DNA of 32,000 nt from Archaeoglobus fulgidus DSM 4304 (GTDB lineage Archaea > Halobacteriota > Archaeoglobi > Archaeoglobales > Archaeoglobaceae): positions 30,001 to 62,000 of the forward strand of contig NC_000917.1 of the NCBI RefSeq assembly GCF_000008665.1. Direction: 5' to 3'. Positions 2,585 through 7,453 of this stretch are shown piece by piece (the first letter of the stretch is position 1; each line of letters starts with the position of its first letter). The notes below the pieces were generated by a model. It saw nothing but the letters and a program-made list of their open reading frames with translations, made no database searches and was not told where the DNA came from. A program made the position numbers and the translations under genes.

Positions 2585-3073
2585 GATAAGGTTTTCCGTT
2601 ACGGAATTTCTTCCTTACTCCTGATCTTTGCTGTCTGTTATACTGTTATTTTCGATGACGGAAGAGTAACATCCTACGATGCTCTGCAGATTCTCCAGTT
2701 TGCTGTTGGCGTCAAAGATCCACTTTTTGTTCAGATATACGCTGTTGTTCACGAGCTCAAAGTCGGAGATGTTCTCAAGGATGAAAGACTGAACTGGTAT
2801 ATACTGAAGGAGAGCGGAGAAACGCTAAGGGTTGGAGTTGAAATTGCCGACGGGAAAGTTAAGGATATTCGCAAAGGTGAGCTGATCAATCCATCAATGA
2901 ACGTTTATTCAGACGAGGGCACAGTGAGAGATTTGCTAAGCAAAAAGGACCCGAAGCTCCTGAAAGAATATATAGACAGTGGAAAAATCAGGATCGAAGG
3001 GGTGGGCATAGGCAACCAGATAAAAATAGCTCTTGCCAAGATTTTCGGAATTTTATCCGATTTCTATTTTTAA
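2585..3073 (+). CDS. SCP2-like small membrane-anchored protein with no canonical start codon (possible frameshifted gene)
   Basis: I translated frame 2 by hand. It is open for 162 codons from the TGA at 2582-2584 to the TAA at 3071-3073. It reads DKVFRYGISSLLLIFAVCYTVIFDDG...NPSMNVYSDEGTVRDLLSKKDPKLLKEYIDSGKIRIEGVGIGNQIKIALAKIF. The C-terminal part resembles the SCP2 sterol-carrier motif (GKLkieGd..a.kl). The first in-frame ATG/GTG/TTG is ATG 2897. Confidence 0.4.
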   Translation, partial: DKVFRYGISSLLLIFAVCYTVIFDDGRVTSYDALQILQFAVGVKDPLFVQIYAVVHELKVGDVLKDERLNWYILKESGETLRVGVEIADGKVKDIRKGELINPSMNVYSDEGTVRDLLSKKDPKLLKEYIDSGKIRIEGVGIGNQIKIALAKIFGILSDFYF

Positions 3074-3136: not shown

Positions 3137-4156
3137 ATGCGCCTCAAGGATGTCTTCGTATCAGAGCTAGCAAGAAGAGGGGTCAGCAGAGTTGGGACGA
3201 GGCTCAAGAAGGTAATGTCTTCACCCGACCCCATCGCCAGAATGGCTCTCTACGTGGCTAACGGCAAGGCGGATGTTTGCAAAAGCGACGGTGGGCTGCA
3301 GCACTCCTTTACGCTCGATGGACAGTTCGTTGATTTGCCTCCGAACGCATACGTCGGGAAATGCCGCTCTGATATTTTGCTGACGAGGGATGAGCTTACG
3401 AAGCACCCCTTTCCCTACGTGGTGGTGGACTGCAGGTTTTTTGATGAGCACTCTGAAAAGGAAAGGTGGAAGATAGAGCTACAGGTGAAGCAGACTCTCG
3501 GCATTGTCAGGGAATACATGTGGGATGAGAAGCTGGTAGTGACCTACCGGAACGTTGGGTTTGGGAAATATTATCCCTCAACCGAGGAGTTTCTGAGGGA
3601 GAAGGGGATTGAGAGGGTCGTGCTGCTTGATCCAAACGGGGATGAGCTTTACAGAAGGACGGGGGCGGAGTGCTTCATTATCGGAGGGATAGTGGACAAG
3701 TCGGGGACGAAGAGGGGGTACACGAGCAGAATTGGGAGGGCGCTTGAGAGGGAGGGCGTGGAGGTTGATTACCGCAGAATTGAGCTCAGGGGGGATACCG
3801 TTGGCGTGCCTGACAGAATAAACCACATAGCGGAGATTCTGCTGAGGGTTGAACTGGATGGAGAGGACGTGGAAAGTGCGATAAAAGCTGTGCAGCCACC
3901 GCTCGTGGCGAAGTGGAGGCTTAGAAAAGAGCTGCACGAGAAGACGGTCAGGGTGTGTGTGGGAGAAAGGGTGGTCAGGGTTGTTGAAAAAGGCGCCTTC
4001 GATGAGTTCAGGGAGTGGCTCAACATAACCATGAGGGACTTTTACGATGTCTGCAGGGAGCAGAAGTTCTTTGTCGTGTCGGAGAAGGTTATGGGCAGGA
4101 TAAAGGCTTCGGAGTGGGATGAAAGAAGGAGGTGTTTCAGGCTAAACCATAACTAA
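3137..4156 (+). CDS. Trm10-family SPOUT tRNA (m1G9/m1A9) methyltransferase, putative
   Basis: 339 aa. ...VVLLDPNGDEL....CFIIGGIVDKSGTKRGYT....VPDRINHIAEILL parallels the Trm10 SPOUT core (yIIGGlVDh..KG.t...vltvNhVfEIL). The size matches archaeal Trm10 with extra N- and C-terminal domains. Confidence 0.55.
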   Translation: MRLKDVFVSELARRGVSRVGTRLKKVMSSPDPIARMALYVANGKADVCKSDGGLQHSFTLDGQFVDLPPNAYVGKCRSDILLTRDELTKHPFPYVVVDCRFFDEHSEKERWKIELQVKQTLGIVREYMWDEKLVVTYRNVGFGKYYPSTEEFLREKGIERVVLLDPNGDELYRRTGAECFIIGGIVDKSGTKRGYTSRIGRALEREGVEVDYRRIELRGDTVGVPDRINHIAEILLRVELDGEDVESAIKAVQPPLVAKWRLRKELHEKTVRVCVGERVVRVVEKGAFDEFREWLNITMRDFYDVCREQKFFVVSEKVMGRIKASEWDERRRCFRLNHN

Positions 4157-4695: not shown

Positions 4696-4926
4696 GCTTG
4701 TGATTTGAGGGTTGACTTTTTTGCTTTTTCCCCACTTTCGGGTGTTTGATGGATTAACCCAAATCAACGTTTGTCCCAGAAGTATTTTCGCGAATCGGTT
4801 ACAACTGAATTGCACCAAACATTGGCTATCATTCAAACGAGTTGAAACTAAACTCATCAATGCTATCAAAAAAGGCAAATCTTAAATAAAATCATGCTAA
4901 AAATGAAAAATAATGGAGGTGGTTGC

Positions 4927-6297
4927 TTGGCTTACATAAGCGATTGCAGCGTTTATCTGCCGGTATGGAAGCTCAAAAGGGATGAGATATCGAAGGAGAC
5001 GGGAATGCCCTCGATGGGGGGTGAAAGGGCGGTAGCGCACTGGGACGAGGATAGCATAACAATGGCGGTTGAAGCGGCAAGGAAGTTTGATGGGGCGTTT
5101 GATGCAGTCATATTCGCCTCCTCCTCTCCACCATTCAGAATCAAGCAGTGTGCGAGCTTCATCGCCTCAGCCCTCGATTTGCCCGATAGCACCTTCACGA
5201 TGGACATAACTGACACAATGAGGGCTGCAACCGATGCTCTTATCACAGCCAACGAGTTTGTTGATTCCGGAAGGTTCAGCAGAGTTCTGGTTGTTGCTGG
5301 CGATAAAATTCCTACAAAGCCCGGCACACTCTACGAGCAGCTTTACGGAGATGCTGCTGCAGCGGTTGTGGTTGAGAAGGAGGGCGGGGCGAAAATTCTG
5401 GGCTACAGCACCTCAACCAAACCCCTTCCAGGTTCGTGGATGCTTGCAGATGACGATACAGTCAGGGACTACGACATGAGGGTTGATGCGAGGTATGGCT
5501 ATGCAGCGAGCGTTCAGAAGGCTGCGATGCCCCTCTTTGCCAAACTTGGGTTAAGTCCAGCGGACATTGACAGGATTGTGGCTTCTGCTCCTGACCCAAA
5601 AAGCTATCAGGGATTGCTGAAGGCAGTTGGGGCAAGGCCTGAGGAATTCTACTTCGACAGCGTTGGAATTGCCGGCTCAGCTCACCCCTTACTTCTGCTG
5701 GCCACACAGCTTGAGAGGGAGGGAAGAATTCTGCTTGGGGGCTACGGAGAGGGAGCTGATGTCATAGCTGTAGAGATTGAGCAGGCGATGGACAGCAACA
5801 TGGGCAGGATGCTTGAAAGCAGGAAGGAAATCAGCTATGGAGATTATCTCTTCAACAGGGGGTTTGTTGGTGTAAGAGATGCTCCTGACCGCCCCTCGCT
5901 GACGAAGTTCTGGAGGGATGAGAAGTCCATTATCCGCTTTTACGGGATGAAGTGCAAAAGTTGCGGGACAGTTAGCTACCCCATCTCAAGATGCTGCATC
6001 GAGTGCGGGGCGAAGGATAACTATGAAGAAGTGAGGCTTGGAGAGAGGGGCAAAATCTACACCTTCACCATCGACTATCTCGTCATGCCCGGCAACTATG
6101 CGGGAGATGGAGTGCACCCCCACTTCATTGCGGTGGTTGACCTCGACGGAGGGGGGAGAGTGCTGTTTGAGCTCACCGACACGCTGAGGGATTTCAGCGG
6201 TGTTGAATGTGATGCAGAGGTGGAGAGAACCTTCAGACTGCTGTTTGAGAAGAACAGGTTCAGATACTACGGCTGGAAGGCCCGCCTGCCGAGGTGA
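4927..6297 (+). CDS. HMG-CoA-synthase-fold domain (catalytic triad apparently lost) fused to a DUF35 zinc-ribbon/OB-fold domain
   Basis: The N-terminal ~330 aa align by eye to archaeal HMGCS (DEDSITMAVEAARKF, YGDAAAAVVVE, GYGEGAD). The C-terminal part has CKSCGTVSYPISRCCIECG plus an OB-like region typical of DUF35. GGAGGTGG precedes TTG 4927. ATG 4894 or ATG 4903 are alternative starts. Confidence 0.75.
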   Translation: MAYISDCSVYLPVWKLKRDEISKETGMPSMGGERAVAHWDEDSITMAVEAARKFDGAFDAVIFASSSPPFRIKQCASFIASALDLPDSTFTMDITDTMRAATDALITANEFVDSGRFSRVLVVAGDKIPTKPGTLYEQLYGDAAAAVVVEKEGGAKILGYSTSTKPLPGSWMLADDDTVRDYDMRVDARYGYAASVQKAAMPLFAKLGLSPADIDRIVASAPDPKSYQGLLKAVGARPEEFYFDSVGIAGSAHPLLLLATQLEREGRILLGGYGEGADVIAVEIEQAMDSNMGRMLESRKEISYGDYLFNRGFVGVRDAPDRPSLTKFWRDEKSIIRFYGMKCKSCGTVSYPISRCCIECGAKDNYEEVRLGERGKIYTFTIDYLVMPGNYAGDGVHPHFIAVVDLDGGGRVLFELTDTLRDFSGVECDAEVERTFRLLFEKNRFRYYGWKARLPR

Positions 6298-6301
6298 TAT
6301 C

Positions 6302-7453
6302 ATGAGAGAGGTTGCGGTTATAGGTTGTGGTGTTACGAAGTTCGGGCACCACTGGGAGAAAGACCACGAGGATTTGCTGGTTGAGGCAACGTATGAGGCT
6401 ATAGCAGATGCAAATGTCGAGCTTAAGGATGTTGAGGCTGTTTGGTGCGGAACCTTCTACCCCTCAACCGGAATAAGCGGAAACGTCTTCAGCGACACGC
6501 TGAAGTTCTTCGGCAAGCCGATAAGCAGAGTTGAGAACTACTGCGCAACGGGAATGGACAACATCAGAAATGCCGCCTTTGCCGTTGCGAGCGGGGCTTA
6601 CGATTTGGTTATTGCTGCTGGGGTTGAGAAGCTGATGGATGCTGGAAGCAGGGGACTGCCGCCAATAGAGGGAATTTTCAGCGTTGCGATGCCCTACGTC
6701 AGCGCTCCGGCAATGTTCGCAATGGCGGCAAACAGGGCCTTCAAGGAGTGGGGATGGACAAGGGAAGATCTGGCAATGGTTGCGGTGAAGAACCACTACA
6801 ATGGAGCGAGGCATCCCAAGGCACACTTCAGAAGCGAGGTAACAGTGGAGAAGGTTCTGAAAGCCCCTATGGTTGCTTACCCGCTTGGCGTTTACGACTG
6901 CAGCGCTGTGAGCGATGGTGCTGCTGCCGTTGTCCTCACAAGGCCTGAGATAGCGAAGGAGATTGTTGGGGATGACTATGCTGTTATAAAGGCTGTGGGA
7001 ATGGCTGTGGAGACGATGCACCCTTGGCACCGCCCTTCGGAGAGCTTCCTGAGTTTTCCAGCGACGGTTAAGGCTGCGAAGATGGCTTACAAGATGGCGG
7101 GAATTGAGAATCCGAGAAAGGAGCTTGACTTCGGCATTGTCCACGACTGCTTCACAATAACGGAGCTAATCAACTATCAGGACATGCAGCTATGCAAGCC
7201 CGGAGAGGGGGCTGAGCTGATAAGAAACGGCGTTACGGCGATTGATGGCGACTTCCCCATCAACCCCGATGGGGGGCTCAAGTCCTTCGGCCACCCAATA
7301 GCTGCCAGCGGGGTGAGGATGGTTGCAGAGCTGACAAAGCAGGTTCTCGGCAAGGCTGAGGGGCTGCAGGTGAAGGATGCTGAGGCAGGCTTCGCCCACA
7401 ACCTCGGAGGGCCTTACTCAGTTGCCACCGTAGCGATAGTTTCGAGGCCCTAA
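6302..7453 (+). CDS. SCP-x-type thiolase (acetyl-CoA C-acyltransferase family)
   Basis: MREVAVIGCGVTKFG..., nucleophile context ENYCATG, and GHPIAASG near the C-terminus. GAGGTGA (6291-6297) lies 4 nt upstream of ATG 6302. The ORF-track start at 6200 overlaps the upstream gene and is unlikely. Confidence 0.85.
   Translation: MREVAVIGCGVTKFGHHWEKDHEDLLVEATYEAIADANVELKDVEAVWCGTFYPSTGISGNVFSDTLKFFGKPISRVENYCATGMDNIRNAAFAVASGAYDLVIAAGVEKLMDAGSRGLPPIEGIFSVAMPYVSAPAMFAMAANRAFKEWGWTREDLAMVAVKNHYNGARHPKAHFRSEVTVEKVLKAPMVAYPLGVYDCSAVSDGAAAVVLTRPEIAKEIVGDDYAVIKAVGMAVETMHPWHRPSESFLSFPATVKAAKMAYKMAGIENPRKELDFGIVHDCFTITELINYQDMQLCKPGEGAELIRNGVTAIDGDFPINPDGGLKSFGHPIAASGVRMVAELTKQVLGKAEGLQVKDAEAGFAHNLGGPYSVATVAIVSRP

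Follow-up and report, generated by a model that had tools for sequence, protein, structure and literature searches.

Assemblies of a thiolase of the acetyl-CoA acetyltransferase (ACAT) type, a module of the 3-hydroxy-3-methylglutaryl-CoA (HMG-CoA) synthase fold (HMGS or HMGCS) and a DUF35 protein are the closest described relatives of the locus reported here. A recent study solved the structure of one of them, MucABC, compared it with PhlACB and with the archaeal complex, and mined bacteria for HMGS/ACAT/DUF35 loci; out of 1,030 such loci, 1,001 were 'minimal' ones with no secondary-metabolism genes (PMC12960953; Nat Commun 2026). It also assayed one of these minimal complexes, from Pseudomonas fluorescens, which consists of a fused HMGS-DUF35 protein without the catalytic Glu-Cys-His-Asn (E-C-H-N) tetrad and an ACAT with the Cys, HDxF and GHx motifs; this complex cleaves acetoacetyl-CoA, makes no HMG-CoA and did not turn acetyl-CoA into acetoacetyl-CoA, and a His-to-Tyr change in HDxF almost abolished cleavage (PMC12960953). 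The mining covered bacteria only, and the authors regarded the P. fluorescens complex as an intermediate of evolution that belongs to no pathway (PMC12960953). Fusions of DUF35 to thiolase-superfamily domains had already been noted in 2010 (PMC2954200). Here, we describe a two-gene operon in a 32,000-nucleotide stretch of the Archaeoglobus fulgidus DSM 4304 genome (a single contig of 2,178,400 bp, NC_000917.1; positions 30,001 to 62,000, forward strand; hereafter the window), in which a 456-aa protein with an HMGCS-like domain fused to DUF35 is followed by a 383-aa thiolase. We consider it probable that the operon encodes a thiolase complex with one active site, which would cleave 3-ketoacyl-CoA in beta-oxidation rather than take part in HMG-CoA synthesis.

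The pair is an archaeal example of this already published and recently assayed kind and, judged from its sequence, shows every feature of the P. fluorescens type. As in the P. fluorescens protein, an N-terminal HMGS-like domain is fused to a DUF35 zinc ribbon and oligonucleotide/oligosaccharide-binding (OB) fold; the E-C-H-N tetrad is lost, the partner thiolase keeps Cys, HDxF and GHx, and there were no polyketide synthase (PKS) or nonribosomal peptide synthetase (NRPS) genes among the window neighbours. Unlike the P. fluorescens complex, the pair belongs to an archaeal, hyperthermophilic host, whose genome also has a canonical HMGCS operon. By the same reading of motifs and architecture, the fusion protein lacks the defining features of a true HMGCS, and the pair lacks those of the PhlACB/MucABC acyltransferases.

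The preliminary description of the locus, made from the sequence, had the Glu/Cys/His triad substituted by Ser/Met/Ser, and both alignments uphold this, with the fourth residue added by the profile comparison: Ser66, Met98, Ser220 and Ile248 stand for HMGCS Glu, Cys, His and Asn. In a MAFFT alignment with the genome's own canonical HMGCS, which has GSESHP, EFACKAGT and VFHMPN, residues E80, C112 and H233 align with S77, M109 and S231 (numbering of the 467-aa frame as first read; see below). A profile comparison by hhalign, in which a family alignment of 29 members (A1) was set against one of 14 canonical HMGCS from related archaea (A3), gave the same equivalences, with N265 falling on Ile (probability 100%, E 1.2e-57, 333 columns), and we saw no shifted alignment that restores the Glu/Cys/His triad in the MAFFT, profile or fold comparisons. 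The alignment of 117 homologues has L45/F36/T20/M9/V4/I3 in the Cys column, where Cys itself never occurs, T100/V11/A4 in the Glu column, S50/Y47/A9 and a single His in the His column, and I62/N32 in the Asn column. The substitutions are not due to chance because they are common to the whole family, and going by these columns the loss of the tetrad is a property of the family and not a peculiarity of the A. fulgidus genome. This supports the original view of a non-catalytic HMGCS fold fused to DUF35; such a protein would be unable to make HMG-CoA.

It might still be argued that the HMGCS-like domain is not dead and has gained another catalytic or ligand-processing activity through other residues. 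The domain has 72 columns that are at least 90% conserved, several acidic residues included, and Cys-less thiolase-fold proteins paired with DUF35 (Ltp2 and Sal) are described as aldolases (PMC12329534). However, the site of the former nucleophile is a variable hydrophobic residue, and most conserved polar residues (DED, K84, D104, D137, E148 and W182) are shared with canonical HMGCS, a sign that their role may be structural. With PhlA and MucA, the nearest solved relatives, being non-catalytic as well (PMC12960953), we regard a new activity of this domain as very improbable.

Domain searches and a structural model agree with the alignments, and the fold comparison, like the profile comparison, returned an HMGCS-type protein, as first read. 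Pfam places ACP_syn_III at residues 103–176, zf-ChsH2 at 347–375 and OB_ChsH2_C at 379–448 (467-aa numbering), in line with the C-terminal DUF35 zinc ribbon and OB fold reported earlier, and the zinc-ribbon cysteines C343, C346, C357 and C360 are invariant across the family. HMGCS equivalog models cover the whole N-terminal 320 residues at scores far below their cut-offs (NF003274, 113.6 against 244 bits; TIGR00748, 68.6 against 353.35 bits). The AlphaFold2 model of the fusion protein is confident (predicted local distance difference test, pLDDT, 91.6; predicted template modelling score, pTM, 0.92). Its best Foldseek matches, which reach 0.81–0.84 in TM-score by target, are PhlA (5mg5_A), 6et9_I (HMGCS from the archaeal thiolase/HMGCS/DUF35 complex) and MucA (9vbo). 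With the archaeal mevalonate thiolase/HMGCS/DUF35 complex, the pair shares the same three modules and folds (matches at 2e-60 for the thiolase, 1.6e-13 for DUF35 and 8e-13 for HMGCS; TM-score by target 0.81 against the HMGCS of that complex), but it differs from that complex in having no tetrad residue in the HMGCS module, in the covalent DUF35 fusion and in standing apart from a separate canonical operon.

The single best match of the HMGCS-like domain, in sequence and fold alike, is PhlA (1.5e-16; TM-score by target 0.83). PhlACB from P. protegens (5M3K/5MG5) and MucABC from Streptococcus macacae (9VBO) likewise combine a tetrad-less HMGS-like subunit with DUF35 and with an SCP-x-like thiolase that holds the only active site, and this likeness could be taken to mean that the A. 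fulgidus pair is a Friedel-Crafts C-acyltransferase acting on a small-molecule acceptor. That is hardly credible, as PhlACB and MucABC are made of three separate subunits and lie in clusters of the type III PKS or NRPS-PKS kind, whereas DUF35 is fused in the A. fulgidus protein, no PKS or NRPS genes lie nearby and the context of the pair's relatives is acyl-CoA oxidation. Moreover, the A. fulgidus thiolase retains the HDxF His that PhlC and MucB have lost (PMC12960953), and its match to PhlC reaches only 1e-23.

In the preliminary description, the thiolase was taken to hold the sole active site, and its conserved motifs point the same way. At the locus, these read NYCATG (with the nucleophilic Cys81), VHDCF and FGHP; of 68 partner thiolases in the family, 67 have the nucleophilic Cys, 67 the His and 67 the Asp of HDxF, all 68 its Phe, and 67 the Gly-His of GHx. 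The thiolase is far nearer to archaeal acetyl-CoA acetyltransferases and to BbsB than to PhlC: its matches in the PDB include 7yvy_A (2.6e-71) and 6esq_A from the archaeal complex, followed by BbsB (1e-51). BbsAB, the benzoylsuccinyl-CoA thiolase of Geobacter metallireducens (7PXP), also joins DUF35 (BbsA, 6e-07) to an SCP-x-type thiolase with HDxF; it is a degradative thiolase complex without an HMGCS-like module, unlike the A. fulgidus pair.

A complex of the two proteins was predicted from both family alignments with an interface score (ipSAE) of 0.80, where none of three controls exceeded 0.00. The mark applied to this score was attained by 58 of 80 solved complexes and by 2 of 110 mismatched pairs. 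The model fits the supposed association of fusion protein and thiolase, although its score may only mirror similar solved complexes in the PDB, which would make it a sign of likeness and not of binding by this particular pair. Model runs share at least 94% of contacts, with a partner pLDDT of at least 92, and the predicted interface sets the DUF35 part (residues 321–449) against thiolase residues 117–148, 190–194 and 238–249. Of the fusion protein, the model brings only the DUF35 part into contact with the thiolase; contacts of the HMGCS-like domain in a higher oligomer are outside its scope.

Pairing of the two genes is widely conserved. Among 70 loci with at least 1.2 kb of flanking sequence, a same-strand thiolase adjoins the fusion gene in 64, downstream in 59 and upstream in five, and the latter include all four Bathyarchaeia. 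In six loci, no thiolase gene lies on the same strand within 6 kb of the fusion: L029, L046, L048 and L071, which form one subclade of Blastocatellia (Acidobacteriota), and L041 and L045, which are singletons from other lineages; CoA-transferase III and short-chain dehydrogenase/reductase (SDR) genes lie near the fusion in L029 and L048. Two tandem thiolase genes follow the fusion in Ca. Alkanophaga (L017:7071-9889) and in one Promethearchaeota genome (L067:7446-9867).

The neighbourhoods of relatives point to beta-oxidation, unlike the reading of the bacterial complex as an intermediate without a pathway in PMC12960953. An acyl-CoA dehydrogenase, enoyl-CoA hydratase or 3-hydroxyacyl-CoA dehydrogenase gene lies within 6 kb in 25 of 72 loci, and some acyl-CoA enzyme is nearby in 39. 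In Archaeoglobus sp. L011, the order is FadB-like, acyl-CoA dehydrogenase, an unclassified open reading frame, AMP-/acyl-CoA ligase, fusion and thiolase, all on one strand except the unclassified frame; in L013 and L014, a FadB-like gene precedes fusion and thiolase, and a Dehalococcoidales locus has eight consecutive acyl-CoA-type genes. The degradative rather than mevalonate-related role first suggested for the pair fits these neighbours, the separate canonical operon and, by analogy, the assay of the P. fluorescens complex (PMC12960953).

The same surroundings bear on the opposite direction, a biosynthetic complex in which the thiolase would condense acyl-CoA with acetyl-CoA (archaeal fatty-acid synthesis or reverse beta-oxidation) while the fusion scaffold recruits a reductase and a dehydratase. 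A DUF35 protein of Sulfolobus acidocaldarius mediates assembly of ketothiolase, reductase and dehydratase in a fatty acid synthase complex (bioRxiv 10.1101/2024.07.05.601840), SDR-type reductase genes lie near the pair in 12 loci and thiolase chemistry can run either way. We nevertheless consider this unlikely: the commonest neighbours are acyl-CoA dehydrogenases and fusions of NAD-type 3-hydroxyacyl-CoA dehydrogenase with enoyl-CoA hydratase, as is usual in degradation; clusters of enoyl-CoA reductase or MaoC dehydratase did not turn up among the conserved neighbours; and the assayed P. fluorescens complex did not run in the condensing direction (PMC12960953).

For the A. fulgidus pair, we therefore favor a thiolytic complex, of which the parts may work as follows. 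The 456-aa protein would be a pseudo-enzyme, whose fused DUF35 module is predicted by the complex model to clamp onto the thiolase. The pair would keep the architecture of the archaeal thiolase/HMGCS/DUF35 complex, probably including the inter-subunit CoA pocket for which that complex is known, and the fusion protein, as a scaffold, would probably complete this pocket. The 383-aa thiolase, with Cys81, His281 and His331 intact, would do the chemistry, most likely CoA-dependent thiolysis of 3-ketoacyl-CoA in the beta-oxidation of fatty acids or alkyl chains; here, we infer the direction of the reaction, the substrate range and the chain length. Several observations weigh against this interpretation. 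There are no beta-oxidation genes beside the pair in A. fulgidus or in L010, its closest relative, the fusion gene of the Blastocatellia subclade has no thiolase gene next to it, and the tetrad Asn is retained in 32 of the 117 homologues. In addition, the assayed example of this architecture is bacterial (P. fluorescens) and not archaeal, and the likeness to it is drawn from its described features and not from a direct sequence comparison. Finally, thiolase reactions are reversible, and their direction is not readable from sequence.

A canonical HMGCS with an intact active site, whose presence elsewhere in the genome had been put forward as a check, does exist: the tetrad is intact in the HMGCS of an HMGCS-thiolase-DUF35 operon at genome positions 2157979-2160467. 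This HMGCS gene (genome positions 2157979-2159006) is frameshifted near its C-terminus in this assembly, which shortens it to 303 aa and leaves the conserved GSGAGSDAF tail in a different frame, and it is an intact 343-aa open reading frame in nine other Archaeoglobus genomes; the frameshift comes from either an error in sequencing or a lesion specific to the strain. The thiolase of the mevalonate operon (genome positions 2159006-2160157) reads VEAADASGG, with Asp in place of the nucleophilic Cys and with HDxF and GH retained. The Asp form was found in 12 of 12 same-family genomes searched, A. fulgidus included, and in 120 of 120 nearest cluster representatives; the corresponding thiolase of seven genomes from other families and orders has Cys (VEAACASGG). 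A literature search for a published mention of the Asp thiolase gave nothing relevant. In total, seven SCP-x-type thiolase genes occur in the A. fulgidus genome, every one of them close to a DUF35 gene; DUF35 matches number eleven altogether, and only two of these seven thiolase/DUF35 pairs have an HMGCS-type module, namely, the fusion pair and the mevalonate operon.

These observations could be taken to mean that, in Archaeoglobus, the intact thiolase on its HMGCS-like/DUF35 scaffold supplies acetoacetyl-CoA to the mevalonate pathway, possibly in mixed assemblies with the real HMGCS. The mevalonate-operon thiolase has lost its nucleophile throughout the family as sampled, and all 10 genomes of the same genus carry the fusion operon. 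On the other hand, the fusion was not found in two other same-family genera that have the Asp thiolase (genome completeness 99% and 81%), the fusion family is common in bacteria and linked to beta-oxidation genes, and five further thiolase/DUF35 pairs in the genome could serve the same purpose. We thus judge a role in mevalonate supply to be quite improbable. An obligatory coupling of the fusion operon with the Asp mevalonate thiolase was also considered and is ruled out, because the Asp thiolase occurs in these two genera where the fusion was not found.

The family to which the fusion protein belongs is not confined to Archaeoglobus. In a scan with one genome per prokaryotic species, at least 565 species-representative archaeal and bacterial genomes carry relatives, and those among the matches listed come from Archaeoglobi, Ca. 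Alkanophaga, Bathyarchaeia, Asgard archaea, Methanomassiliicoccales, Chloroflexota, Thermodesulfobacteriota, Acidobacteriota and others; Pseudomonadota are represented by L027, L030 and L057. A FastTree phylogeny with canonical HMGCS as its root groups the fusion proteins in a single clade, distinct from the real synthases (support 100). Archaeal and bacterial members are mixed in this clade, with Archaeoglobi as sister to Alkanophaga and two Chloroflexota, although the tree was built by a quick method, contains two long branches and is uncertain in its details.

The coordinates of the locus are given in Table 1. The open reading frame as first read runs from ATG 4894 to 6297 on the forward strand and encodes 467 aa; the frame itself stands, whereas its start had to be corrected. 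The upstream ATGs of the window read ATT and TTT in the two closest relatives (89% identity; L009 and L010), the arrangement of GGAGGTG and TTG is kept in both, and four more distant Archaeoglobi have ATG exactly at the position of the window's TTG. The start is thus TTG 4927 and not ATG 4894, which gives a protein of 456 aa and lowers the residue numbers of the 467-aa frame by 11; homologues are 451–457 aa long. The TATA-like box is a putative promoter, which may be shared with the divergent HDIG gene. As reported earlier, the thiolase gene begins 4 nt after the fusion gene (stop TGA 6295-6297, ATG 6302), with a GAGGTGA of its own and the NYCATG motif, all of which can be read directly in the window.

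Table 1. Positions of the fusion gene, its partner thiolase gene and their parts in the window.
Feature	Position	Strand	Basis or remark
AT-rich TATA-like box cttaaataaaat	4881..4892	+	Read from sequence; about 35 nt upstream of TTG; kept in L009 and L010
Shine-Dalgarno-like GGAGGTG	4915..4921	+	5 nt before TTG; kept in L009 and L010
Fusion gene, 456-aa protein (HMGCS-like domain without catalytic tetrad, plus DUF35)	4927..6297	+	Corrected start TTG 4927; stop TGA 6295-6297
HMGCS/KAS-III-fold domain, residues 1-317 of 456	4927..5877	+	hhalign, Foldseek, NCBIfam NF003274
Substituted tetrad codons	Ser 5122-5124; Met 5218-5220; Ser 5584-5586; Ile 5668-5670	+	
DUF35 rubredoxin-like zinc ribbon (CKSC...CIEC)	5932..6018	+	Pfam zf-ChsH2, E 6.4e-08
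DUF35 OB fold, predicted thiolase contact surface	6028..6237	+	Pfam OB_ChsH2_C, E 3.4e-12; DUF35 match 6esq_E, 1.6e-13
GAGGTGA, Shine-Dalgarno of thiolase gene	6291..6297	+	Overlaps stop codon of fusion gene
SCP-x/archaeal-ACAT-type thiolase, 383 aa	6302..7453	+	NF004810, 585.5 bits against cut-off 403 (passes)
Thiolase catalytic codons	Cys81 6542-6544; His281 (HDxF) 7142-7144; His331 (GHx) 7292-7294	+	

In the window, the pair stands alone between the divergent HDIG gene and a convergent gene for ManA (mannose-6-phosphate isomerase), with a Trm10-like gene further upstream and PCMT also among the neighbours; none of these window neighbours showed a functional link to the pair. The Trm10-like gene (3137-4156, +; 339 aa) has no Pfam match and reaches 283 bits, against a cut-off of 550, with the NCBIfam model of Trm10 tRNA (G9/A9) methyltransferase. 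A start-less open frame at 2585-3073 (+) gave no Pfam match at E up to 0.01, so that the label "SCP2-like" once attached to it is unsupported by this search. Literature retrieved under the locus tags AF0032 to AF0035 consisted of unrelated papers only.

Taken further, the pair could serve anaerobic degraders of fatty acids and alkanes as a thiolase module dedicated to beta-oxidation, in which the dead synthase is kept as half of the inter-subunit CoA pocket, in mirror image to the mevalonate complex. We hold this view only tentatively and rate it as doubtful. Its hosts would be Archaeoglobi, Ca. Alkanophaga, Bathyarchaeia, Asgard archaea, Dehalococcoidia and Desulfobacterota, and the module appears to have been exchanged between domains. 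If so, one Archaeoglobus genome would hold both reciprocal half-dead versions of the architecture, a live HMGCS with a Cys-to-Asp thiolase and a dead HMGCS with a live thiolase, and the thiolase of the fusion operon might also supply acetoacetyl-CoA to the mevalonate complex.

What the locus adds to the published picture is confined to two points, its beta-oxidation context and the presence in the same genome of a reciprocal mevalonate thiolase that lacks Cys. It extends the 2026 bacterial result to archaea, and the gene contexts suggest that such complexes have a real catabolic job in beta-oxidation and are not idle evolutionary intermediates. Archaeoglobus would thus offer a natural pair of reciprocal pseudo-enzyme complexes for asking why this architecture outlives one of its active sites.

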